Source of the DNA: Planctomycetota bacterium
GTDB taxonomy: Bacteria > Planctomycetota > Phycisphaerae > WQYP01
DNA: 64,000 bases
NCBI GenBank assembly: GCA_021831565.1
Contig: JAKBMM010000001.1
Coordinates: forward strand, 80,321 to 144,320
Direction of reading: 5' to 3'
Part shown: piece by piece, positions 19,456 to 62,531 of the stretch
Position numbering within the stretch: the stretch's first letter is position 1
Layout of the letters: every line of letters starts with the position of its first letter
Notes under the pieces: generated by a model
Database searches by the model: none
Told to the model about the DNA's origin: nothing
What the model saw: only the letters and a program-made list of their open reading frames with translations
Made by a program: the position numbers and the translations under genes

Positions 19456-20487
19456 CTACGACCCGGCTGGTTCGTGCGACTCGTTGGCCCGGGGATGGGC
19501 CTTTTCATAGGAATCCTGGAGTCGCTTGGTGGTCAAGTGCGTGTATATCTGGGTGGTGCTCAGGCTCTGGTGGCCGAGCAGTTCTTGGACCGCCCGCAGG
19601 TCCGCGCCATGGTTGAGCATGTGCGTGGCGAAGCTATGCCGCAGCGTATGAGGGCTGATATCCAGGTCCAGATGCGCCTCGATGAGGTATTTATCGAGTT
19701 TGCGGCGGACGGAACGGGTACTCAGTCGCTGGCCGTGCTTGTTGATGAACAAAGGCGCGCCGGTCGGGTCGCCGGAGTTCGCCGCGCCGCGCATCCGCAC
19801 GTATTTCTCAATCGCCGCCAGGGCGGTCGGACCTACCGGAGTCAGACGTTCCTTGCGGCCTTTTCCACGAACTTTGAGCACCGTCCCAACAAAATCCACA
19901 TCCTGTATATTCAAACCGACAAGCTCGCTCACGCGCAAACCACTGCTGTAAATTACTTCAAGCATGGCCTTGTCGCGGGCGCCGAGCAGATCGGTATCTT
20001 TGGGAGTCCCCAAAAGCTGGGTGACCTGATCTTCGGTCATGAACCGGGGCAGGCGTTTTTCCAGCTTGGGAGTCCGGATCGTCAGCATCGGGTTGTTGCC
20101 GGTCAAACCGCGTTTATTGAGAAACTTAAAGAAACTGCGAAGTGTGGCCAGCTTACGGGCAACCGTCGCCTTGGAATAATCATGCTCGCGCATGTGGCGG
20201 AGATAATTCCGCACGTCGTCGGCGTTCGAGTTCAACAGAAGCCGTTCGATATCTTCCGGCGGAGGTTCGGGAACGGCTGGAGTGTGATCATTGATGTTTG
20301 AAGTCGAAGGCGGTGTCACCGGATGGCCGCCGGGCAGCGTGAATGTATCGGGCACTCCCGCCAGGAATCGTCCGAACTGGCGTAAATCGGCGCTGTAGCA
20401 TTTGCTGGTGTAATTCGAGAAGTGCCGCTCAAATTGCAGATAATTCAGGAATTCCACAACGCGCTGGGGCAGAGTAACCGTATCCAT
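19456..20487 (-). CDS. Tyrosine site-specific recombinase, XerC/XerD family
   Basis: SAM-like core-binding N-domain (YLQFERHFSNYTSKCYSADLRQF). The catalytic C-terminal HTLRHSFATHMLNHGADLRAVQELLGHQSLSTTQIYTHL carries the R..HxxR..H..Y signature. The start is uncertain (20487 or 20589). A Pro-rich insertion lies between the two domains. Confidence 0.7.
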   Translation of the reverse strand: MDTVTLPQRVVEFLNYLQFERHFSNYTSKCYSADLRQFGRFLAGVPDTFTLPGGHPVTPPSTSNINDHTPAVPEPPPEDIERLLLNSNADDVRNYLRHMREHDYSKATVARKLATLRSFFKFLNKRGLTGNNPMLTIRTPKLEKRLPRFMTEDQVTQLLGTPKDTDLLGARDKAMLEVIYSSGLRVSELVGLNIQDVDFVGTVLKVRGKGRKERLTPVGPTALAAIEKYVRMRGAANSGDPTGAPLFINKHGQRLSTRSVRRKLDKYLIEAHLDLDISPHTLRHSFATHMLNHGADLRAVQELLGHQSLSTTQIYTHLTTKRLQDSYEKAHPRANESHEPAGS

Positions 20488-20884
20488 GAGCAATACGCCT
20501 CGTGACCGGATGCGCAAGCCCCCACCATCCTCGGCGCGGAGCCGCGGCCATACGGTCGGGTTTTCGACCAATTTACGAGCCACATCCATCTCGGCTCACT
20601 TACCCAGGTTCGCGGACGGGCGCCATGGTCAACGCGAGCGGGCGAACGGACGTCGATGCCTCCGCCCTTGCCTTCGATTGCTCGACTCGCACCGCCAAAC
20701 GCCCCCGACTAATTCAAACTATTTATCGGCTTTTTATCGTTTGAACCTGAAGTTGCGCAGATTCCCCACAACGACTTTACGTGAATATCGCGATCATCAT
20801 GAATTTTTGCGGCGCACACGGCGTCAAATATCGGACGCCCAGAGCGTATGCAAAAGATATTTTTCGGGGAAACCTAAAGAGAAA

Positions 20885-26294: not shown

Positions 26295-27374
26295 TTACTC
26301 CCAGTAATAGTTTCCATCATAATAATTACAATGCAAATTAGACGGGCCTTTCCACTCCACCGATCCGTCGTTATACAGAATATTCGCCCCCCGCGCGCCA
26401 CCCTGGCCCATGTGGTTGGATATGGGATAAGGTCCTGGCGAAAAAGAGGGGCCAAATCCCCAGTATGGCTTCGTCGCATTAGTAATCGTAAGATCGCTGC
26501 CCAAAATAGAATCAACCGAGCGATGGATATTGTTCTCCGATGTGAACGGATGCTGCGGATCAGGAAGATAGGTGCTTGCCGTCAGGCCCGTCCAGGGATT
26601 GGTTACATTTATGGTTGTGGATCCCGGAACCGCTCCTGTTCCTGACGGATTGGAAAACGAGCTCTGGGAAAATCCAAACCAGTAATTGTAGCTGAAGAAG
26701 ATGGCCTGTAGAAAAGCCGAACCATGCGCCGAAGTAAGGGTAGCTTGCCAAGCCGTAGGCTGTTCAAACCCATTGGCCACCCAGGTGTTGGGGTGAGTTA
26801 GATATGGCATCGGAATCCACGACATGGGAAAGGTTCGAGCTTCTTGCCCACCAGCATTGATTGGGCCGCCAACCAGACTGGTATTCCCATCAAGCGTGAA
26901 ATAACTCGACTGCGGGCAGAAAAAGACCGCCGGATTCTTGATGATGCCGGTGGTATACAACATGCCAAAACCAAATGGATAACCACCATAGTTATTCATC
27001 CCGCCACCGCCGCCGCTGCCGCTGGAGTTCATATTGCCGAACGGACCAAGGGCCTCGTGTATATATCCCCCCCCGTGATCCGCCGGAGTCCATCCCGCCG
27101 GATAAGGATAGTTTTTGTATGAAGCGTCATACTCGGCCACCCCCTGCCCGAGCGACTTCAAATTCGAAGAGCAGATCACCTGGTATGCCAGGTTTTTAGC
27201 CTTGGCCAGCGCGGGCAGCAACAGCGAGATCAGAATGGCGATGATCGAAATGACCACCAGCAGTTCAATGAGCGTGAATCCCGAGAGCCAGCGGGATCGG
27301 TTTTGGGGCTGGCGTCCGCGCCGGTCAATCGTATTGCCAGCGGATTCCTGCGTGTTGGTTGTGCGCGGCAGCAT
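26295..27374 (-). CDS. Prepilin-type N-terminal cleavage/methylation domain protein, DUF1559 (H-X9-DG) family, copy A
   Basis: [29 protein letters not shown] class-III signal / pseudopilin helix. C-terminal [21 protein letters not shown]9-DG motif. Strong AAGGAG Shine-Dalgarno. Gly-rich central insert. Confidence 0.8.
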
Positions 27375-28768
27375 GATAAGAACTCCTTCTTTACACTACT
27401 ATTGTCACAATATATCACCCTTTCTTACTGGGCGTCAAGTCAATTGCGGATTTTTTTTCTCACGAAATGGTACGGCTCGTCCGATATCCCCGACTTCTCG
27501 CCGTTCCGAGACAAATACCTAAACTCTTGCGCTCGTGAAGTTGTTACTCCCAGTAGTAGTTTCCATCATAATAATTACAATGCAAATTAGACGGGCCTTT
27601 CCACTCCACCGAGCCGTCGTTATATAGAATATTCGCCCCCCGCGCGCCACCTTGGCCCATATGGTTGGATATGGGATATGGTCCCGGCGTACCCAAACCA
27701 GCGCCGAATCCCCAGTACGGCTTTGTCGCATTAGTGATTGTAAGGTCGCTGCCCAAAATAGAATCAACCGAGCGATGAATATTGTTCTCCGATGTGAACG
27801 GATGCTGCGGATCCGGAAGATAGGTGCTTGTCGTCAGGCCCGTCCAAGGATTGGTTACATTTATGGTTGTGGATCCCGGAACCGCTCCTGTTCCTGACGG
27901 ATTGGAAAACGAGCTCTGTGAAAACCCAAACCAATAATTGTAGCTGAAATAGATAGCCTGTAAAAACGACGAACCATGCGCCGAAGTAAGGGTAGCTTGC
28001 CAGGCCGTAGGTTGTTCAAACCCATTGGCCACCCAGGTGTTGGGGTGGGTTAGATACGGCATCGGAATCCATGACATGGGAAAGGTTCGAGCTTCTTGCC
28101 CACCAGCATTGATTGGGCCGCCAACCAGACTGGTATTCCCATCAAGCGTGAAATAACTCGACTGCGGACAAAAAAAGACCGCCGGATTCTTGATGATGCC
28201 GGTGCTGTACAGCATGAAAAAACCAAATCCATAACCACCATAGGCATTCATCCCGCCACCGCCACCAGTCCCGCTCGAGTCCATACTGCCGAACGGAGCA
28301 CAGGCCTCGTGTATATACCCTCCCCCGTGATCCGCCGGACACCATCCCCCCGGGTAAGGATAGTTTTTGTATGAAGCGTTATACTCGGCCACCCCCTGCC
28401 CGAGCGACTTCAAATTCGAAGAGCAGATCACCTGGTATGCCAGATTTTTCGCCTTGGCCAGCGCGGGCAGCAACAGCGAGATCAGAATGGCGATGATCGA
28501 AATGACCACCAGCAGTTCAATGAGCGTGAATCCCGAGAGCCAACGGGATCGTTTATGGTACCTACTTCCCCGCCGGTCAATCGTATTGTTGGCGGATTCC
28601 TGCATGTTGGTTGTGCGCGTCAGCATGATAAGAACTCCTTCTCTTTACTACTATTGCCACAATGTATCACCCTTTCTTACTGGGCGTCAAGTCAATTGCG
28701 GATTTTTTTCCTCACGAATATGGTACGGCTCGTCCGATATCCCCGACTTCTCGCCGTTGCGGGAGACA
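26296..28768. repeat. Tandem direct duplication (two units of about 1.22 kb) comprising the DUF1559 gene plus its 5' UTR and promoter
   Basis: Unit 1 is about 26296-27515 and unit 2 about 27543-28768. Near-identical nucleotide stretches were visible by eye, including TACTCCCAGTA(A/G)TAGTTTCCATCATAATAATTACAATGCAAATTAGACGGGCC and the upstream TTCTTACTGGGCGTCAAGTCAATTGCGGATTTTTTT. Confidence 0.8.
27544..28626 (-). CDS. Prepilin-type N-terminal cleavage/methylation domain protein, DUF1559 (H-X9-DG) family, copy B
   Basis: About 90% identical to copy A over the whole length, with the same N-terminal pseudopilin helix and H-X9-DG C-terminus. Confidence 0.8.
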   Translation of the reverse strand: MLTRTTNMQESANNTIDRRGSRYHKRSRWLSGFTLIELLVVISIIAILISLLLPALAKAKNLAYQVICSSNLKSLGQGVAEYNASYKNYPYPGGWCPADHGGGYIHEACAPFGSMDSSGTGGGGGMNAYGGYGFGFFMLYSTGIIKNPAVFFCPQSSYFTLDGNTSLVGGPINAGGQEARTFPMSWIPMPYLTHPNTWVANGFEQPTAWQATLTSAHGSSFLQAIYFSYNYWFGFSQSSFSNPSGTGAVPGSTTINVTNPWTGLTTSTYLPDPQHPFTSENNIHRSVDSILGSDLTITNATKPYWGFGAGLGTPGPYPISNHMGQGGARGANILYNDGSVEWKGPSNLHCNYYDGNYYWE

Positions 28769-44716: not shown

Positions 44717-45010
44717 TTACGGTTCCACGCCCACCACCACCAGCGGCACGGCCGGCGTGCCGCGGCCCTGGCGCAGAAGATCGTAGAGGCCCCCTTCGTA
44801 GTAACCGACGCCGGATGACATCCGGGATTGCAGGGATTTCATGGGCAGAATCTCGATGCCCACGTCGATCACGTCACCGACAAAAAAGGCCATGTGCTTG
44901 ACGAACATGTCGTATGCGACAAACGCATACTTGCCAAACTGTATTTCGAGCGCAATTCGATCTTTGACGAAATCAGTTTGATTGTACGAATACATCGCCT
45001 GAATTTTCAT
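44717..45010 (-). CDS. Small hypothetical protein downstream of, and overlapping, the DNA methyltransferase (possible restriction endonuclease remnant)
   Basis: 97-aa ORF. Its ATG overlaps the methyltransferase stop (ATGA). GC is about 50% versus a flank of about 65%. It contains D...EIQFGK and DVIDVGIEILPMK segments that loosely resemble PD-(D/E)xK strands, which is not conclusive. Confidence 0.35.
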   Translation of the reverse strand: MKIQAMYSYNQTDFVKDRIALEIQFGKYAFVAYDMFVKHMAFFVGDVIDVGIEILPMKSLQSRMSSGVGYYEGGLYDLLRQGRGTPAVPLVVVGVEP

Positions 45011-45954
45011 CGATGACCACCGTTCGGCAGTGTAGGATCGTAAACGGGGCGTTCCATGGGACGGGTTTGCAGCACACCGGTCCGGTAGTCCGCAATACGG
45101 GCGCGGGCAATCTTTACATATTTCTCTTCGATATCACAGCCATAACCGTCGCGATTGTTCTTAATCGCGGCGATAACGGCGGAACCGACACCCATGTAGG
45201 GGTCGAAAACACCATCCCCGGCGCGCGTCATGGAGAGGACAAGCCGTTCAACAAGCTCCACGGGAAATTGGCAGGGATGAATCGTCTTTTCAACGTGGTT
45301 GGCTTTTACATTTGGAATAACCCACACGTCGCCGGGATTTTTCCCCAGCGGATTGCACGAGAACATACCGGCTTTGGGGCCTTTGAAGTATTTCTTTCCG
45401 GGGTATTTTGGTGGGATACGGATCGGGTCAACATCGAAGACAAACTGGTCGGACTTGGTAAACCACAGGATCGTTTCGTAACGTCCCGAAAAACGCCGCG
45501 TGCAATGCAGGCCGTGTTCGAAATGCCATATAATGCGGTTCCGTAGTTTCATTCCAAGCTTTTTGAAAATCGGGTGGAACATGATGTCCAGCGGGACCAC
45601 CTCGCCGTCGATGGTGATATGGTTGCCAACCTGCCAACAAATCGATCCCGCCGGTTTGAGCAGACGTACACAGTGGCTTATCACCCGTTCCTGTGTTTCG
45701 AGATAACAAGTCAGTGAATCCCGCCGCTCGTATTCTTTACCGATGTTGTAGGGGGGAGAGGTGACGATCAACTGGAAGCTCTGATCCGGAAATTTCGCCA
45801 TGAACTCGAGGTTGTCGGCACACGCAACAGCGTGCTTGCCGACACCGGAACCTAAGCTATTCCGTTTGATTTCGCCGATCGGAAAAAGCGTCTGGCCGAT
45901 CATGATGGATACCCCGAGTTCCAAAAGCCAGTGGTTAATATACCCGAATCTCAC
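45007..45954 (-). CDS. Beta-class DNA methyltransferase (SPPY motif IV preceding FxGxG motif I; probably N4-cytosine or N6-adenine specific)
   Basis: LIVTSPPYNIGKEY (motif IV) lies N-terminal to VFDPYMGVGSAVIAA (motif I), which is the circular permutation of beta-class amino-MTases. SPPY rather than DPPY favours N4-cytosine. Locally low GC. Confidence 0.8.
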   Translation of the reverse strand: MRFGYINHWLLELGVSIMIGQTLFPIGEIKRNSLGSGVGKHAVACADNLEFMAKFPDQSFQLIVTSPPYNIGKEYERRDSLTCYLETQERVISHCVRLLKPAGSICWQVGNHITIDGEVVPLDIMFHPIFKKLGMKLRNRIIWHFEHGLHCTRRFSGRYETILWFTKSDQFVFDVDPIRIPPKYPGKKYFKGPKAGMFSCNPLGKNPGDVWVIPNVKANHVEKTIHPCQFPVELVERLVLSMTRAGDGVFDPYMGVGSAVIAAIKNNRDGYGCDIEEKYVKIARARIADYRTGVLQTRPMERPVYDPTLPNGGHR

Positions 45955-51438: not shown

Positions 51439-52248
51439 ATGGTTATGTCCACATTCACTGGTAAATTCCGACATCTTCTCCCTGTGATGGTCGCTGCGGT
51501 CGCGGCGGCGGGAGCGCTCGCGGCGCCGGCCGGGGCGGACACCATCCAGACCATCAGTGTGTCGGCGACCAACGTCGGCGGTTCAGACTTTGCGGCCAAC
51601 GCCGTCATTCAGTTCGATCTGAATTCGACGGCGGGTACGATATCGGTGTCCGTCGACAACACGACGGCGGATACGGTTGCGGCCAACCAGTTGCTGCGGA
51701 GCGTCTACTTCGAGATCGGCAATAATAGCGCCGACCTGACGACCGCTTCGCCTTCCATAACGGATTTCCAGAACGGGGAATTGGTACAGGTGAACTCCAC
51801 CGCCACCGGCGGCTATAGCATCACTTCCACAACCACTGATCCCTGGTCGGTCGCATCGTCGGTTTCCACATTCAACTACTCGTATGGCAGCGGGACTTAC
51901 AGTATCTCCAATGCCTACCGGCTCGGTGTTACGAGCATGCCGAAGCATTTGATTATCGGTCCGCCGAATGGCACGCCCCCAAGGTACAGCAACGCCAATG
52001 GCAGCATTGCCGGCAACGGAGCCCATAATCCTTTTCTTGGCGATACGCCCACATTTGTTTTGTCCGCTTCGGGTTTGACATCCAGCGACAAAATTGAAGC
52101 CGCGGCGGTCGGTTGGGGTACAGTGGGAGGCAGCGGTTACACACCAACGCTTGTCACAACCACCATTCCCGAACCGGCCACGATCGGTTTGCTGGCTGCG
52201 GGCGGTTTGGGGTTGCTGGTGGGCAAGCGGCGCCGGCGGGGCTCTTAA
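51439..52248 (+). CDS. PEP-CTERM sorting-domain secreted protein (Ser/Thr-rich)
   Basis: Signal peptide. S/T/N-rich body. C-terminus TIPEPATIGLLAAGGLGLLVGKRRRRGS, which is PEP motif, TM helix and Arg cluster, the exosortase recognition signal. Confidence 0.75.
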   Translation: MVMSTFTGKFRHLLPVMVAAVAAAGALAAPAGADTIQTISVSATNVGGSDFAANAVIQFDLNSTAGTISVSVDNTTADTVAANQLLRSVYFEIGNNSADLTTASPSITDFQNGELVQVNSTATGGYSITSTTTDPWSVASSVSTFNYSYGSGTYSISNAYRLGVTSMPKHLIIGPPNGTPPRYSNANGSIAGNGAHNPFLGDTPTFVLSASGLTSSDKIEAAAVGWGTVGGSGYTPTLVTTTIPEPATIGLLAAGGLGLLVGKRRRRGS

Positions 52249-52329
52249 CGTCGCAACGTTTCCTGTGGCGGCGCCGCGGATGACGGCGCCGCCACATTCC
52301 GACCACATTTATAAGAACATATATGTTAT

Positions 52330-52362
52330 AGCTCTCCATCATGGAGAGCTTTTCTTTTTTTT
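52330..52362 (+). terminator. Rho-independent terminator after the first PEP-CTERM gene
   Basis: Perfect palindrome AGCTCTCCAT-c-ATGGAGAGCT followed by TTTCTTTTTTTTC. A second GC hairpin (GGCGGCGCCG...CGGCGCCGCC) lies at 52269-52294. Confidence 0.6.
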
Positions 52363-52607
52363 CTTAACTTCTCCGCCCCGCCTGGCCGAAGAATAAGACA
52401 GTCACATTCCGTGGAGTTACACATCCTCCACAACCGCCGTCCGGGAAGGCGGCGGTCGGATAATAGGACAATATCCATCGGCGGCCGGAAGGAAGGATCG
52501 AACGGTGTCCCGCTCGCTTCGGGTTCGGTTCGGTTACAGGCCGTCACGACAAGTAAAACGCGCCGCCGGGTTGCCGGCGGGCGGAAAACATATCTGAATT
52601 ATAAGTA

Positions 52608-53360
52608 TTGTTATTGCGCAAAGGAGCGTTTATGAAAAGTTTCGCGGGTTCTAAGACTTCATGCTGTGTATATGCGGCGATTATTGCGGCGGGGCTCGCC
52701 GCGCCGGCGGCACAGGCGAGCTTTGTGGTGCAGTTCGAAGCCAACAACAAAGGCGCCATCACCAGTTTCACAGGCGTCGGCGGCGTTATTAATCAGTCGA
52801 ATGTGACGGTCGGCACATTTGACATCAGCATCTACGACGCCACATCCAATTCCGGCACATCGCGGACACCGCAAATCAGCACGGTGAGCGTGAGCATCGC
52901 CAAGAAAGGTAGTTCAAAAAAAACCGACATACTTGCGATCAATTTATGGGACACCGGCTTTTTGCCGATTGGTTCTCCGCTGACTCTGGCCGGTTCCGGA
53001 AGCGTCACGTTTAACGCCGCCACCAGCGGCGATTCCGCCACATTTGCCAGCGGCGCCGATCCGCTCGACGGCACATACTCTCTGACCACTCCGTCGCCGC
53101 CGGTGCAGACGGGTTCCTCCACCGCGACCTATTCAAGCGGGGGTTTTCCCCAAACACAGACACTGGTTGAGCAAACGGCCGTGTTCAGTCCCAATGGAAC
53201 CAATCCCTTTTCCATGGGCAACAACTTGGAACTGAGTCTCGCTGGCGGTTCGAACGTCACGCTCAGCTACACCACCACCGTTCCCGAAACAGCCTCGCTG
53301 GAGCTGCTGGCCGTGGGCGGCCTGGGATTGCTGCTCAAGCGCAGGCGGAAGGGGCAATAG
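52608..53360 (+). CDS. PEP-CTERM-like sorting-domain secreted protein (variant VPETAS motif)
   Basis: AAGGAG Shine-Dalgarno, signal peptide, S/T-rich body. C-terminus TTVPETASLELLAVGGLGLLLKRRRKGQ, with the same architecture as the upstream paralog. Confidence 0.7.
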   Translation: MLLRKGAFMKSFAGSKTSCCVYAAIIAAGLAAPAAQASFVVQFEANNKGAITSFTGVGGVINQSNVTVGTFDISIYDATSNSGTSRTPQISTVSVSIAKKGSSKKTDILAINLWDTGFLPIGSPLTLAGSGSVTFNAATSGDSATFASGADPLDGTYSLTTPSPPVQTGSSTATYSSGGFPQTQTLVEQTAVFSPNGTNPFSMGNNLELSLAGGSNVTLSYTTTVPETASLELLAVGGLGLLLKRRRKGQ

Positions 53361-54929: not shown

Positions 54930-55096
54930 CGCATTTGCTTCGCCGGTGCTCATCGCCGATATTGGAGCATAAATCGCGCTGCGGAACCAGCGATCCGAAT
55001 GGCATGAACCGCAAGTACTGGCGGAGAATACGATAGAATCCCGATACCCGCCTGCCGGCAGGCGCGGGCTATCAAAAAGGCTTTCCAAGAGTTTCG

Positions 55097-56206
55097 ATGA
55101 GGCCGCTGAAACTTACATCGCGCACCATGGTCGGGGGGCTGTACTTTGGCCGGCCGGCATGGCGGGTCATGGCGTGGCCGGAACCACCGGATACTCCGGC
55201 GACGGAGGAAAAGAATCCGGAGATTTCGCGGCCGGAAAATCGCCGGCAGCTTGGCGATTTACTCCTGCGCGTATGCCCCGGTACAACTGGTTCCTGGACT
55301 CCCGCGCTGGTTCGGCAACTTGCGGACTTGGCGGACCGGCGCGCCCGGCTGTTGATTCTCAATATGCTGCCGGTTCAGCCGGAATCGTTGCTGCCGGCCG
55401 CCATGACGCAGTTTCAATCCCGGGATCTGGTGGCCGGCGTGGAGCTGGTCGCGCAGTGTCTCGACTCGCCGCGGGTGATGGTGGCGCTCGATCGCCATGA
55501 TCGCCCCACTTGGCGGGCGTGGCGGCGGCTGGCGGACGGGCGGCGCTTTCGCATCCATACCCTGGTCAATCGTTACCCGCAGGCGCACCCAGTGATCCTG
55601 GCGCGGTGTTTGACGGGAACGGTTCTATCACCCGCGAGTCTTCCATCCGGCAGGGACATCGTGCTGTTGGATCCCGTCACGTGCTGGGCGCTGGGAAGAT
55701 TTCTGCGGTGGGGCCGCGCGACGACGCGCCCCGTGCAGGTATTTGTCAGTGGGCGGGAACCTTGCCTGGCCGAGGCCCGTGTGGGACAGCGGGTGGCCGA
55801 TTTCCTGCGGACACTGGGCATTCCGCCGGACGCGGGAGAGTGCATCCTCAATGGCATGCTCGCCGGCGAATGGATCGATCCGGAGCGAACCGCTATCCGC
55901 TGGGATACGGAATTGATTTCCTTGCGCCCGCCGGCCGCACATGAGCCGGCCGTGGACTGCATCCGCTGCGGCTGGTGTGTGGGCGCTTGTCCCGTGGGCC
56001 TTAATCCAGTGTCATTGCTGGCGGCGGCGCGGATTCATGACGGGTTGCCGGTGGGAGATCGGCGGGAAGCGGTAGCGTGTATTGATTGCGGCTTGTGCAG
56101 TTACGTGTGCCCGTCGCGCCTGGATCTGGCCGCGACGATTCGCACGCTGCGTGTGGAGCAGTTGGGCATGGCCGCCGCGGCGGCGGAACTCGTCTCCAAG
56201 GGATGA
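55097..56206 (+). CDS. RnfC-like protein: SLBB-like domain plus two [4Fe-4S] ferredoxin motifs, lacking the NADH-binding (51K) fold
   Basis: C-terminal CIRCGWCVGACP and CIDCGLCSYVCP (2x CxxCxxCxxxCP). The preceding VFVSGREPCLAEARVGQRVADFLRTLGIPPDAGECILNGMLAGEWIDPERTAIRWDTELISL resembles the RnfC SLBB region. No GGAGFP/Rossmann motif was found. The start is ambiguous (55097, 55127 or 55169). Confidence 0.55.
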   Translation: MRPLKLTSRTMVGGLYFGRPAWRVMAWPEPPDTPATEEKNPEISRPENRRQLGDLLLRVCPGTTGSWTPALVRQLADLADRRARLLILNMLPVQPESLLPAAMTQFQSRDLVAGVELVAQCLDSPRVMVALDRHDRPTWRAWRRLADGRRFRIHTLVNRYPQAHPVILARCLTGTVLSPASLPSGRDIVLLDPVTCWALGRFLRWGRATTRPVQVFVSGREPCLAEARVGQRVADFLRTLGIPPDAGECILNGMLAGEWIDPERTAIRWDTELISLRPPAAHEPAVDCIRCGWCVGACPVGLNPVSLLAAARIHDGLPVGDRREAVACIDCGLCSYVCPSRLDLAATIRTLRVEQLGMAAAAAELVSKG

Positions 56207-57486
56207 AAACGGGAGAAACAATTCCCGATGGCTTTCGGGATGGCTTTGGCTGTTTTATAGGAGGCATCAAGCTCCTGCTTCTGGATCATCCATCCTCTAT
56301 AGACGCCGGCGTTGACCCGGCGCCCGCGACGCGAGATGAATCGCCCGGAGCTATTCTCGGACGACATCCTCCGTTTCTTCTTTGGCCGGCGGCGCGGCGC
56401 GAGTTCTATCAAACCATCGCTTATACGGCATTGCTGCCGTTGGCCTGGGGCATGGTGGTGTTTGGGCGCTGCGCCATCGCCGTGGTGGCCTGCTATGCCG
56501 CCGGCGCTATCGTCGCTTACGCGCTGCTTCAATGGCTGTTCCGGCGAAATCTCGGCAAGGCGGCATTGACATTTCACCATACCCTGGCTTGTGCATTGAT
56601 CGCCGCGGCCTTGGCCTACCCCCTGATGCCGTGGTACATAGCCTTGGGCGCGGGTGCCGGGGTAACGCTGCTGATGGCGGCGACCGGTTCCATCAGGCGC
56701 CCGTGGCTGCATGTGGGATTGCTTGCCGCCCTTCTGTTGGTGGTGCTGTATCCCACGCCGCGTCGCTGGCCGTTGTTGGCCAGAAACCACCTGGTGCTCG
56801 GCAACGCGGCGCATAATCGAAGCGGATCAATTTACCGCTGGCCGCGCTCCGGCGGGCCGGGCGGTGTCGACGCGGTGCGGTTCGAGCGCCCCGGCCTGGT
56901 CCTTCAATCGCTCTATGCGACCATCGCGGCGAATCCCCTGAGTGGCCCATCGCGTTTACGGCTGCAACGGGCATTCGCCTTGGATTTGCCGGCGCCGGGC
57001 GATCTGTTCCTCGGCGCTGTTCCGGGCCGTATTGGAACGGTCGGCCTGCTAGCGATCGTTCTGGCGGGGTTATGGTTGTCCTGCCGGCACATCCTGCTTC
57101 CCGGCGCCTGGGCGCTGTTTTTGCTCGGCGTGGTGGTGGGGCTGGTGCTTGGACCATTCTCGTCGCACGTGTTTGATCACGAATTCTGGCAGAGCCTCGG
57201 AGGTCTTTGGTACCTGCCACCGGAACGGGCGTTGACCTTGGTGGTTGATGAGTTATGCAGCGCCGATTTTCTGTTTGCATCGGTCTTCGTGCTGGCTCTG
57301 CCGGGGACGATGCCGATGGAACCGATGGCCCGGCGCGTATTTCTTCTCGCCGCGGGAATTCTGGCGGCCTTGGCGCACCGGCTGGCCGTCCCGGCGCTGC
57401 CCGCAACGCTCACGCTGCTGCTGCTCCAACCGCTGACCCCGACCTTGGACGTTCTGTTTCACCGTCGTTCGTGGGTGAGACCGTGA
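56203..57486 (+). CDS. RnfD/NqrB-family-like polytopic membrane protein
   Basis: ATGA-coupled to the upstream gene. The segment PLMPWYIALGAGAGVTLLMAATGSIRRPWLHVGLLAALLLVVLYP parallels RnfD [43 protein letters not shown]. Eight or more TM helices. The FMN-Thr region looks non-canonical (VDELCSAD instead of TDPVTAS). Confidence 0.5.
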   Translation: MKTGETIPDGFRDGFGCFIGGIKLLLLDHPSSIDAGVDPAPATRDESPGAILGRHPPFLLWPAARREFYQTIAYTALLPLAWGMVVFGRCAIAVVACYAAGAIVAYALLQWLFRRNLGKAALTFHHTLACALIAAALAYPLMPWYIALGAGAGVTLLMAATGSIRRPWLHVGLLAALLLVVLYPTPRRWPLLARNHLVLGNAAHNRSGSIYRWPRSGGPGGVDAVRFERPGLVLQSLYATIAANPLSGPSRLRLQRAFALDLPAPGDLFLGAVPGRIGTVGLLAIVLAGLWLSCRHILLPGAWALFLLGVVVGLVLGPFSSHVFDHEFWQSLGGLWYLPPERALTLVVDELCSADFLFASVFVLALPGTMPMEPMARRVFLLAAGILAALAHRLAVPALPATLTLLLLQPLTPTLDVLFHRRSWVRP

Positions 57487-57666
57487 TTTGCTGTTTCCCG
57501 CGGCGGAAGGGACAGTAGCACAGCGGAATGGAATGCAAAAGGCACCGGCGGAGGCCCGGCTCGCCGCCTGCCTGTCCCGACCGCCCGCGGGCAGGCGGGT
57601 AACTATCGGGGTAGCCAGCGAGGCGCAAACAGGCCGGGACATCGCACGACGCAATGGAAGATTCTC

Positions 57667-58953
57667 ATGCAACAAATATTTTCCGGATGGCGGCTGTGGC
57701 GCCTGGCTTGGGTGGTCCCGATAGCCATTGGGATTTTATCGGCCATGTTGTCGCCGGCGGCGCCCGCCACGAACCCGGCGATCCCCCCTCCGCTTAAAAA
57801 TCGGCAAATCCCGGCGCGTGGCAAAGGTCTGTCTCCCGATGAATCGGTACGGACCTTGTCCATCGGGAGACGAGTCCCAACACGTTTGGAGGAGGCTTTA
57901 ACGGATCTTTCTTCCGATCGTTATGCGGTGCGTCAACGCGCCAGCGCGGCGATCCGCAAGGATTTAGCCGGGCAATTGGGGGCGATCATCCAGGCGGTTG
58001 GACCGGAAAAGAAGAATCGCCTGATCAAACTGCTCCGATTCGACTCGCAACTATCGCGCTGGGCGCGGGCGGTGCTCGCTCTACCGCCGCGACAACGCAC
58101 GGCGATGTTCGCCTGGGGGCTTCAGAGCAAGGTACTGCCTTGGGCGGCGGGAGCGTTTTCATCGCGATCGACCCGGCGCGCCGCGGCGGCCCGCCGGCTG
58201 GCGAAAATACCAGGCTCCCAGGCCGATTGGCTTCTCCAGCGGCTGCTGGCCAGCGGGCATCGTCTGGTCTATCTCTCGGCGATGGCCGCGGTGTGGGATC
58301 GTCCGCCAACCCCGGCAATGGTGCGGATCGTCTGGCGGCGCGCCTTCTCGACCGGCAATCCTATGCCGCCCTACGATGCGAACCAGCGAAGCGTGTGGTT
58401 TCACGGCCGGCGGATATTCGTGCCGAAAAGTGTGAACTTCTGGCAACAGTCGCCGGACAGCGGTTTTGCCCGGCAGCTTCTGGCGCATTGGAAGCCGCCG
58501 GAGCTGGCTGAACTGCTGGTGGACTTCCTGCGCAGTGCGGCGCAAACGCGCCCTTTGGAGAATCCGTTCTCGAACCCCGGTATGATGCAGATTCCCAACT
58601 ACATCCGTTTGTTCCGACTATACAAGCCGCCGGCGGCGGCGCCATACCTGCTGCGCCTGCTGGCCACGCCCCCGTTCAACAATATTAATTTCAATTTCAA
58701 CAACACTCCCTTGCACTGGGACAATCACCTCACGCCCCTGTACCTGTTGATTCTGGCCGCCGGGCAGGATCCGGCGAAATACCATTTTTACCGGTCGAAC
58801 CTTTACGGCGGGCGATGGCTGCTGCATACCCAGAGAGAGGAAAACAAGGACATCAAAAAAATGATCTCTTGGTGGAAAAAACGGGGCGTCCTGGCGTGGA
58901 CTCCGGCGACGGACGCTCGGCCGGCGACTCGCCCGGGAACGATCCCGCCATAA
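57667..58953 (+). CDS. Hypothetical secreted protein (signal peptide, alpha-helical repeat-like)
   Basis: MQQIFSGWRLWRLAWVVPIAIGILSAMLSPAAPA signal peptide. 428 aa. No recognised catalytic motif. Confidence 0.5.
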   Translation: MQQIFSGWRLWRLAWVVPIAIGILSAMLSPAAPATNPAIPPPLKNRQIPARGKGLSPDESVRTLSIGRRVPTRLEEALTDLSSDRYAVRQRASAAIRKDLAGQLGAIIQAVGPEKKNRLIKLLRFDSQLSRWARAVLALPPRQRTAMFAWGLQSKVLPWAAGAFSSRSTRRAAAARRLAKIPGSQADWLLQRLLASGHRLVYLSAMAAVWDRPPTPAMVRIVWRRAFSTGNPMPPYDANQRSVWFHGRRIFVPKSVNFWQQSPDSGFARQLLAHWKPPELAELLVDFLRSAAQTRPLENPFSNPGMMQIPNYIRLFRLYKPPAAAPYLLRLLATPPFNNINFNFNNTPLHWDNHLTPLYLLILAAGQDPAKYHFYRSNLYGGRWLLHTQREENKDIKKMISWWKKRGVLAWTPATDARPATRPGTIPP

Positions 58954-61930: not shown

Positions 61931-61963
61931 CGCGGCGGGGCCGCCCCGCCCGCTAAACCGGGG
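61931..61963. repeat. REP-like GC-rich palindromic element (orientation L), abutting the RAYT 3' end
   Basis: CGCGGCGGGGCCGCCCCGCCCGCTAAACCGGGG, the same core motif. A partial inverted copy of the GTTTAGCG tail lies at 61886-61895. Confidence 0.6.
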
Positions 61964-62531
61964 TACGCGGCCACGGCCGGACAAATTCCCAACGCTGCCG
62001 CGGCAGACCCGCCTTAACCGGGTTGGCGTTGGTGTATTGGATCGCGAGCTGGATGGCATCCACATCATTGAGAAACACATGCCATCCGCCGCGCGCCCAT
62101 ATCGGCTGATCCGGGCGGAGGCCTTGAGCGCCGAGTTGTTTGGTCGCGCGGCTCTTGAGGTGGCCGACAACTTCCTCGATCGTCCGCTGATGCCGCAATA
62201 TCACCGCGTGCACGTGATCCGGCATGATGGCGCAGGCCACCATCCGAAAATCAGCCTCATCGCACGCCACCTGAAATCCACGGCTGATGGCAGCAATCTG
62301 CGCGTTGGTAAACCGCATCGGGGTGGAGGCAAGGGCGTTTTTAGTCCGCAGCCGGTCCGCGCGGTCGTGTGGGATCGCGGCGACGGATCGCCGGGCGCCG
62401 CAGGCAGTCCCGCCGCCGGCGGCGTAAAAAAGGTCCCACGATCGCACATAATCCGACCATGATCCGCGCGGATCATTGGGCAACCAAAATCCGTAGGCAC
62501 AAAAAATGCTGTGATACGCCAGCACCGCCAT
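61953..62531 (-). mobile_element. REP-associated tyrosine transposase (RAYT; IS200/IS605-like HuH Y1 transposase, TnpA_REP)
   Basis: 192 aa. HuH motif in MPDHVHAVIL. Catalytic Tyr in the conserved AIQYTNANPVKAGL (Y..NPV.AGL). N-terminal YHSIFCAYG typical of the IS200 fold. Flanked by inverted REP clusters. Confidence 0.75.

Follow-up and report, generated by a model that had tools for sequence, protein, structure and literature searches.

What can an RnfC-like and an RnfD-like protein do when the remaining subunits of an Rnf complex are not encoded beside them? The question is raised by a 64-kb stretch of DNA from a Planctomycetota bacterium (Phycisphaerae), hereafter the window, to whose 64,000 nucleotides all coordinates refer and in which the region 55097-58953 holds three plus-strand open reading frames (ORFs), the first two encoding a C-like and a D-like protein (together C+D). 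The usual view takes Rnf and Nqr for redox-driven ion pumps that need all six of their subunits. The answer that we favour, tentatively and at slightly less than an even chance, is that the RnfC and RnfD side of the Rnf/Nqr machinery gave rise to C+D as a self-contained, non-pumping membrane electron-transfer module, leading from iron-sulfur (FeS) clusters to the membrane or periplasm. An initial annotation of this DNA had called the three ORFs, and we found them exactly where it placed them:

55097-56206, plus strand: gene 1, C-like protein of 369 amino acids (aa), an RnfC homologue
56203-57486, plus strand: gene 2, D-like protein of 427 aa with ten transmembrane (TM) segments, a membrane protein of the RnfD/NqrB family
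57667-58953, plus strand: gene 3, a cysteine-free protein of 428 aa whose N terminus has a hydrophobic, signal-like stretch

The TGA of gene 1 and the ATG of gene 2 share an ATGA at 56203-56206, where the sequence reads GGATGAAA. This 4-nt overlap, which the initial annotation had described correctly, predicts translational coupling of gene 2 to gene 1; 180 bp separate gene 2 from gene 3.

Gene 1 aligned to residues ~139-434 of RnfC in three solved Rnf complexes (Acetobacterium woodii, Azotobacter vinelandii and Clostridium tetanomorphum) with E values of 2e-19 to 3e-15, and Fer4 families matched its ferredoxin region. In NCBIfam, the rnfC subfamily model scored 102 bits against a cut-off of 246, and a Pfam search of gene 1 returned no RnfC_N (PF13375) match and left Complex1_51K under its cut-off. 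The SLBB-like region claimed for this protein went undetected by Pfam, although the RnfC alignment runs across it. An AlphaFold model built with 29 homologues reached a predicted local distance difference test (pLDDT) score of 80.8, exceeding 90 over residues ~45-285, and shows that the Rossmann-like Complex1_51K fold is retained. The earlier statement that gene 1 has no Rossmann fold for reduced nicotinamide adenine dinucleotide (NADH) and flavin mononucleotide (FMN) was hence right about the binding motifs, which are gone, but not about the fold. Overall, the protein is predicted to keep Complex1_51K-like and SLBB-like folds together with a ferredoxin domain for two [4Fe-4S] clusters, without RnfC_N. 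Because it carries no Tat or Sec signal, it should be cytoplasmic like RnfC; its true start may be Met11 (55127), just ahead of the family motif M-x-GGLYFGPPxW. Three features matter for its function:

55280-55387, plus strand: degenerate FMN/NADH-site motifs, located by residue-level alignment to the three RnfC proteins and two canonical rows (P0128 and P0134) of alignment A2
55958-55993, plus strand: first [4Fe-4S] motif CIRCGWCVGACP, C288-P299, of the form Cx2Cx2Cx3CP
56078-56113, plus strand: second [4Fe-4S] motif CIDCGLCSYVCP, C328-P339, of the same form Cx2Cx2Cx3CP

At the former nucleotide site, residues 62-69 read GTTGSWTP in place of G(L/M)GGAGFP in RnfC, and residues 88-97 read LNMLPVQPES in place of (I/L)NGAECEPYL. 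The tandem RnfC-type ferredoxin motifs, already recognized in the initial annotation, proved strictly conserved: none of the eight cysteines and neither of the two prolines varies among 29 sequences sharing 20-52% identity with the window protein (alignment A2). The family also has conserved motifs of its own, namely the N-terminal GGLYFGPPxW, LNLLPxQPES, DRHD, NRYPQAHP and RPVQVF, and this pattern of conservation is the one expected of a working protein with a changed function.

Gene 2 belongs to the RnfD/NqrB family, as had been proposed. PF03116 (NQR2_RnfD_RnfE) matched it with 60.4 bits (gathering cut-off 27.7), and a 22-sequence family profile (A1) matched RnfD of A. vinelandii, C. tetanomorphum and A. 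woodii at E values from 1e-10 to 8e-7, with 1.3e-10 for RnfD chain 8ahx_D. Alignment by hhalign to Escherichia coli RsxD covered 289 columns, and hydropathy revealed ten TM segments in the RnfD arrangement. A single D-like sequence searched with phmmer against PDB gave no match. The AlphaFold2 model from the 22-sequence alignment was poor (pLDDT 57, predicted TM-score 0.40), and its top four Foldseek matches were RnfD/NqrB proteins at low TM-scores. The possibility that profile searches would place gene 2 in an unrelated transporter family did not materialize, as they returned RnfD/NqrB.

In RnfD of A. woodii, FMN is covalently bound to T156 in a periplasm-facing pocket, and riboflavin occupies a second pocket, open to the cytoplasm, where N123 and D249 form hydrogen bonds with it; the subunit serves electron transfer only, the Na+ path lying in RnfA/E, and acts as a wire between the membrane-anchored periplasmic redox domain of RnfG and the clusters of RnfC (PMC11889175). 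We mapped these cofactor positions through N122, T187 and D289 of E. coli RsxD in a MAFFT alignment of RsxD with 146 D-like proteins, and independently through hhalign and hidden Markov model (HMM) alignments (8ahx_D):

56710-56712, plus strand: His170 at the riboflavin-Asn position (N123 in A. woodii, N122 in E. coli; NPA motif), from the 146-sequence alignment
56869-56892, plus strand: periplasmic loop DAVRFERP, residues 223-230, with Arg229 at the FMN-Thr position, aligned by hhalign onto DGISQATP
57292-57324, plus strand: LALPGTMPMEP, residues 364-374, the counterpart of (A/L)TDPVTSP in the HMM and 146-sequence alignments

This mapping corrects the initial annotation, which had taken TDPVT for the flavin-attachment site of RnfD and VDELCSAD (348-355) for its counterpart. 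TDPVT instead holds the riboflavin Asp and aligns with LALPGTM (364-370), where Leu366 occupies the Asp position (D249 in A. woodii, D289 in E. coli), whereas the Thr that carries covalent FMN sits in the DxxSxATP loop, which aligns with DAVRFERP. The latter is the counterpart of the flavinylation loop D-x-x-[ST]-x-A-T-P and keeps its flanking Asp and Pro. Within the Phycisphaerae clade of the 146-sequence alignment, all proteins but one have R, P, A, M, V or S at the FMN-Thr position; the lone Thr (P0009) stands within DGIRVRTP, and no clade member has the [ST]-x-A-T flavinylation motif. Across the non-canonical rows as a whole, the canonical [ST]-x-A-T loop is almost absent, with R or P usually in place of Thr. 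The riboflavin-Asn position is His or Gln in nearly all D-like proteins and Asn in canonical RnfD, and at the riboflavin site Asp or Glu is kept in some D-like subfamilies and not in others. The complete set of N, T and D was confined to canonical RnfDs, few of which are present in the alignment.

Judged by these alignments, the D-like protein of the window appears to have lost both known flavin anchors, and its pocket would be more hydrophobic through the exchanges of Asp for Leu and Asn for His. There is no Thr in the loop and, therefore, no ApbE-type flavinylation is expected. The suggestion that the pair might be a flavin-transfer device found no support, with no flavin-binding residues left and no ApbE in the window, where Pfam scans for a nearby apbE came back empty. 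Even so, no other part of the protein is as well conserved as the former riboflavin-pocket region, comprising TM8 (343-366) and the loop 367-377. Two further segments stand out:

56368-56409, plus strand: cytoplasmic N-terminal motif PPFLLWPAARREFY, residues 56-69, consensus PFLxWPVARREFY, conserved in A1
57184-57225, plus strand: Trp-rich periplasmic loop between TM7 and TM8, FWQSLGGLWYLPPE, residues 328-341, with H322 and H326 just before it

The N-terminal motif PPFLLWPAARREFY may be a contact with the C-like subunit. The Trp-rich loop (family consensus HxxxHEFWQSLGGxWYLPPE) ranks second in segment conservation and is specific to the family, the canonical RnfD loop being short there; the periplasmic loops of D-like proteins are in general conserved, family-specific and longer than those of RnfD. 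The His residues near the Trp-rich loop are not invariant in A1. Haem ligation by the D-like protein was considered and is unlikely, as it has no invariant His or Cys.

We then asked how widely the pair occurs. Scanning one genome from each GTDB species with a degenerate pattern yielded 36 loci, all from Phycisphaerae/Planctomycetota, so that the recurrence survey suggested in the initial annotation was positive, and the C+D-only arrangement was also present in many metagenome contigs with otherwise unrelated neighbours. Wherever upstream DNA exists, the C-like gene lies directly before the D-like gene, often with the same 4-nt overlap; four loci are excepted. No companion rnf or nqr genes emerged, in agreement with the earlier claim: tblastn with E. 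coli RsxA, RsxB, RsxE and RsxG found no match in the window or in ~50 related loci (flanks of 10 kb on either side), and Pfam scans of the window ORFs found no Rnf-Nqr, FMN_bind, ApbE, nqrC-F-like, haem or quinone genes. As no RnfA/E lies nearby, there is no ion path in the C+D module, and as the FMN motifs of RnfC are gone, there is no NADH chemistry; the module should thus be incapable of oxidizing NADH or pumping ions. With the NADH/FMN motifs, the Thr, the Asp and RnfA/E all missing, we concur with the earlier view of an orphan C+D pair that is no conventional ion-translocating NADH:ferredoxin oxidoreductase.

Both module genes are under purifying selection. Compared with a 93%-identical relative, the ratio of nonsynonymous to synonymous substitution rates (dN/dS) was 0.20 for C, 0.18 for D and 0.29 for gene 3, and intact ORFs with ATGA coupling are kept across relatives that are 33-59% identical in D and about 39-51% in C. 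The D-like profile was searched exhaustively against the 1.84 billion representatives of a library clustered at 50% identity. Matches numbered 24 at E<=1e-30, rising to 173 at E<=1e-10 and to 822 at E<=1e-3; the best 150 consist mostly of proteins of 380-430 aa that align end to end, and RnfD-like proteins without the Thr make up more than 100 of the 50%-identity clusters. A third large homologue search, started from the wider alignment A3, recovered mostly the same clade again. Four natural C-like::D-like fusions of 790-860 aa (P0179, P0189, P0203 and P0224) contain both FeS motifs and Thr-less D-like halves, and at least two of the four come from Phycisphaerae. Another protein, P0284, is a canonical RnfC-RnfD fusion with the Thr kept.

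More distant pairs (L050, L054 and L056) combine a C protein that has RnfC_N but degenerate FMN motifs with a D protein lacking the Thr. This suggests a series from canonical RnfCD, through an FMN-less C with a Thr-less D that keeps the riboflavin Asp, to the fully flavin-less Phycisphaerae form. In two distant pairs (L050:1664-2830 and L052:1543-2706), the gene downstream of C+D encodes an MRJP/Yellow-family protein (PF03022). Homologue searching also brought up P0145-P0153, NqrA-type proteins (PF05896/PF24836/PF11973) that still have a 4Fe-4S dicluster domain, one of them labelled Thermodesulfobacteriota; from their domains they look like intermediates between RnfC and cofactor-less NqrA. 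Public annotations name the members of the pair 'RnfABCDGE type electron transport complex subunit D' and '4Fe-4S dicluster domain-containing protein'. Neither NCBIfam nor Pfam holds a dedicated model for it, and a literature search found no paper on an RnfC-like/RnfD-like pair and no two-gene module among the Rnf papers listed.

A second recurrent feature of these loci, missed in the initial annotation, is a globin. In 21 non-redundant genome loci, out of ~33 that could be evaluated, a globin gene lies directly upstream of the pair, in the order globin-C-D and on one strand (L001, L007, with coordinates L007:8231-8713 as an example, L009, L014-L016, L018-L022, L024-L027, L029, L031, L034, L036, L037 and L040). 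The same order was found in four further metagenome loci, that is, in all four with a globin at least 46% identical and enough downstream DNA. The globin is a group-1 truncated haemoglobin, matching PF01152 (Bac_globin) with 49.9 bits and PDB entry 8tls at an E value of 1.4e-13, with the proximal His aligned. This His is present in the globins of all 21 genome loci except L029, whose variant recurs in metagenome locus L063. All globins carry a signal peptide ending in a lipobox Cys and are thus predicted to be exported, membrane-anchored lipoproteins. To our knowledge, an exported, lipid-anchored truncated haemoglobin has not been described so far, and a literature search for such proteins found nothing relevant. 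Separately, metagenome contigs of lower GC content or unrelated origin (L064-L069), none of which has a C/D pair, encode group-1 truncated haemoglobins that are less closely related and whose signal peptides are of the classical Sec kind (type I), and periplasmic truncated haemoglobins may accordingly be more widespread than assumed.

How, then, might the module work? In the mechanism that we favour, a cytoplasmic low-potential one-electron donor, for example ferredoxin or flavodoxin, would dock on the vestigial nucleotide domain of the C-like subunit, and single electrons would run through its two [4Fe-4S] clusters to the D-like subunit and enter the pocket that once bound riboflavin and has since been remodelled. 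They would most plausibly be accepted in this pocket by (mena)quinone or another non-covalent cofactor; with Leu in place of Asp and His in place of Asn, it would be a better fit for the head group of a quinone than for a ribityl chain. NqrB offers a parallel to this proposed route, the same pocket region handing electrons to ubiquinone. Where a globin lies upstream, electrons may go on to this periplasmic haem protein, docked as RnfG is in Rnf.

Several observations weigh against this explanation. Only the FeS clusters can be assigned, and the transmembrane route has no identified intermediate carrier: haem or metal would find no invariant His or Cys in the D-like protein, the two known flavin anchors are gone, and its model (pLDDT 57) gives no usable pocket geometry. 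Four loci of a divergent subclade (L041, L046, L047 and L048; ~33% identity) carry the D-like gene alone; all reading frames within 10 kb are devoid of both a C-like gene and the Cx2Cx2Cx3CP motif. Flanking genes differ widely by clade and include pheT, nifU-iscS-fur, plsY, nth, dxr-rseP, a pyrD-type dihydroorotate dehydrogenase and sod. As to the globin, there is none anywhere in the 64-kb window, about a third of the loci and the window's closest relatives lack it as well, and exported truncated haemoglobins of other taxa adjoin neither C/D nor any other recurrent membrane redox partner.

In a narrower reading, C+D would be the dedicated reductase of the exported globin. The globin would replace RnfG, its haem would be kept ferrous for periplasmic nitric oxide (NO) dioxygenation or O2 scavenging, and in the window lineage it would be encoded elsewhere or replaced. 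Such a role would make sense of the operon-like globin-C-D order in 21 of ~33 genome loci and all four qualifying metagenome loci, of the lipobox Cys in every globin and of the long, family-specific periplasmic loops of D, and it has a precedent in RnfD as the wire between periplasmic RnfG and the RnfC clusters. It leaves the globin-less window and loci, the other neighbours of C+D pairs in the wider family, the L029/L063 globin without a proximal His and the Sec-exported globins without C/D unaccounted for. We rate it lower, as unlikely, because no cofactor carrying electrons across the membrane has been identified; the flavin anchors of D are lost, no replacement is evident, and the membrane gap stays unbridged. 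A bolder version would see in C+D the long-sought reductase of a truncated haemoglobin, with a cytoplasmic [4Fe-4S] subunit, a flavin-less RnfD-type wire and a periplasmic lipoprotein trHbN (truncated haemoglobin) forming a three-part relay, and with the more than 100 Thr-less clusters constituting a new class of non-pumping conduits that use an as yet unidentified cofactor; this picture we regard as doubtful.

A non-redox role seems decidedly improbable to us. The D-like protein would have become, or gone back to being, a channel, transporter or cofactor handler, for instance delivering haem to the exported globin by way of its His-flanked, Trp-rich periplasmic loop, and the C-like protein would cap it as a regulator or redox sensor. 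In favour, every redox cofactor anchor known for D is missing, four loci have D but no C, and a periplasmic b-haem globin requires haem export; the Trp-rich loop with its flanking His may loosely match the WWD haem-handling motif. However, the His adjacent to this loop are not invariant, profile and fold searches were topped by RnfD/NqrB only, with no similarity to transporter families, and the two complete, strictly kept [4Fe-4S] motifs and the fusions to D point to electron transfer into D. Nor do we give much credence to the idea that these are alternative or accessory C/D subunits for a canonical complex of the Rnf or Nqr type, whose genes would lie at another place in the genome. Homology to RnfC and RnfD is clear, and an nth gene upstream of the pair in L042, L044 and L045 recalls the rsx-nth linkage of E. 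coli. Yet the FMN Thr that accepts electrons from RnfG/NqrC is gone, as is the NADH site, the fusions argue for a self-sufficient unit, no rnfA, rnfB, rnfE or rnfG lies within 10 kb in ~50 loci, and the family is large and old, with its >100 clusters and its own conserved motifs. Finally, a functionless, decaying remnant of an rnf operon, which the initial annotation had entertained, is hardly credible. Four of six subunits and all flavin/NADH motifs are indeed lost, but dN/dS of 0.18-0.20 in both genes, intact and still coupled ORFs, invariant family-specific motifs, the dozens of clusters matched by the profile search, the presence in 36 GTDB species and the natural C::D fusions effectively refute it.

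The nth genes deserve a separate remark. In L042, L044 and L045, an nth-like (endonuclease III) gene and a gene for a small membrane protein lie just upstream of the C-like gene, and in E. coli (L049) nth directly follows rsxE; nth beside the C+D pair could be a vestige of shared operon ancestry.

Turning to the immediate surroundings, the signal-peptide protein annotated after the pair is indeed present, gene 3 having an N-terminal signal-like segment. It has no Pfam or NCBIfam match, and its homologues are limited to the near-identical contigs L010-L013, whose D-like protein is at least 94% identical; it is a lineage-specific neighbour that probably does not belong to the module, and we rejected it as a member. 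The flanks of the globin-less loci showed no consistent exported neighbour. Two non-coding features border the pair:

54953-55096, no strand assigned: intergenic stretch between the divergent proB (minus strand) and gene 1, presumed promoter region
57469-57496, plus strand: weak terminator-like hairpin with a T-rich tail, from a consensus scan, overlapping the stop codon of gene 2

A sigma-70 consensus scan of the region gave no match upstream of gene 1, terminator-like sites were as numerous as expected by chance, and neither the promoter nor the terminator scan produced anything above chance; the hairpin only weakly marks an operon end after gene 2. The product of proB (glutamate 5-kinase; AA_kinase and PUA) has 378 aa from the start called in the 99%-identical contig L010.

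The remaining genes of the window are housekeeping genes, including astAB, NAD kinase, asnB, uvrD, dinB, ffh, dxr, rseP and ribBA as well as xseA, lysA, nusG, tuf, exbBD, sppA and comM, and among public data the window comes closest to metagenome-assembled genomes from Phycisphaerae/Planctomycetota, such as GCA_027429255.1 (99%). Several other loci were noted in passing. At 44717-45954 (minus strand), a 97-aa ORF resembling only the C-terminal part of BglII restriction endonuclease (profile positions 70-163 of 163) adjoins an N4/N6 DNA methylase gene; a type II restriction-modification system may have decayed here, leaving the methylase as an orphan. Downstream of exbB-exbD, at 51439-53360 (plus strand), lie genes for two neighbouring exported Ser/Thr/Gly-rich proteins with PEP-CTERM-type C-terminal anchors, of which the first alone meets the Pfam threshold. 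A tandem pair of paralogous ~360-aa genes with N-terminal prepilin-type methylation motifs (N_methyl) occupies 26295-28626 (minus strand). The sole mobile-element-like genes of the window are an IS200-like Y1 transposase of the REP-associated type at 61953-62531 (minus strand) and a XerC/D-type tyrosine recombinase at 19456-20589 (minus strand).

The pair matters in practice, as its database names may lead metabolic reconstructions of Phycisphaerae to infer an Rnf complex wrongly. More broadly, a large family maintained by selection, in which the C-D arm alone survives, the known flavin and NADH sites are replaced and the FeS motifs are strictly kept, implies a different and so far undescribed use of the RnfD scaffold. 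If the globin link is functional, it would provide the electron supply for a globin class whose reductase partners are largely unknown, and if C+D is the globin's reductase, Phycisphaerae would have a haem protein that detoxifies NO or O2 in the periplasm with power drawn from the cytoplasm. The evolutionary series, in turn, should help to explain how Nqr-like devices arose from Rnf.

Set against known systems, C+D is closest to Rnf (RnfABCDGE/RsxABCDGE). It shares both protein folds and the gene order C then D, the two Cx2Cx2Cx3CP [4Fe-4S] motifs of RnfC and a cytoplasmic C subunit without Tat or Sec signal, as well as the 10-TM layout of RnfD with its TM6 segment 'G..PG.IG..S...L..GGL.L.YR' and C-terminal 'PL.D' segment. 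In contrast to the six-subunit Rnf set, the pair has no RnfA, RnfB, RnfE or RnfG nearby, in the window or in ~50 loci; the C-like protein lacks RnfC_N and the FMN/NADH motifs (GxGGAGFP and NGAECEP); and the D-like protein has Arg229, Leu366 and His170 where RnfD has the flavinylated Thr, the riboflavin Asp and the riboflavin Asn, and exceeds it in length by about 80-110 residues, its periplasmic loops and N-terminal motif being specific to the family. Because these subunits and cofactor sites are lost, the coupling of NADH and ferredoxin to ion translocation that Rnf achieves is out of reach for C+D.

Na+-NQR offers a partial parallel on both sides. NqrA is an RnfC homologue that lost the NADH/FMN site, and NqrB an RnfD homologue with a cytoplasmic-side pocket that gives electrons to quinone. 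However, NqrA lost its FeS clusters, whereas the C-like protein strictly keeps the motifs for them, and NqrB keeps covalent FMN and riboflavin, whereas the D-like protein lacks the Thr; the NCBIfam nqrB equivalog scored 19.6 bits on the D-like protein (cut-off 349.9), and the window holds no nqrC-F-like Pfam match. PrdC, associated with proline reductase, is likewise an RnfC homologue acting outside Rnf and matched weakly (TIGR04481, 23.9 bits), but with a cut-off of 490, housekeeping neighbours and no prd genes beside the pair, identity with PrdC was rejected; the C-like protein is, moreover, always paired or fused with an RnfD-like membrane protein.

A functional analogy is provided by NrfCD, PsrBC and DmsBC, in which a poly-[4Fe-4S] protein sits on a cofactor-less membrane anchor and electrons are exchanged with the quinone pool. 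The folds are unrelated (NrfD versus RnfD family), and the FeS subunits of those systems are usually periplasmic, Tat-exported and in the service of a catalytic subunit, whereas no catalytic partner is known for C+D. Taken together, C+D belongs with Rnf and Nqr by fold and family and, its RnfC-type [4Fe-4S] motifs apart, departs from both in every cofactor comparison and in its subunit set; what is new is a flavin-less, stand-alone C+D variant of a known Rnf arm.

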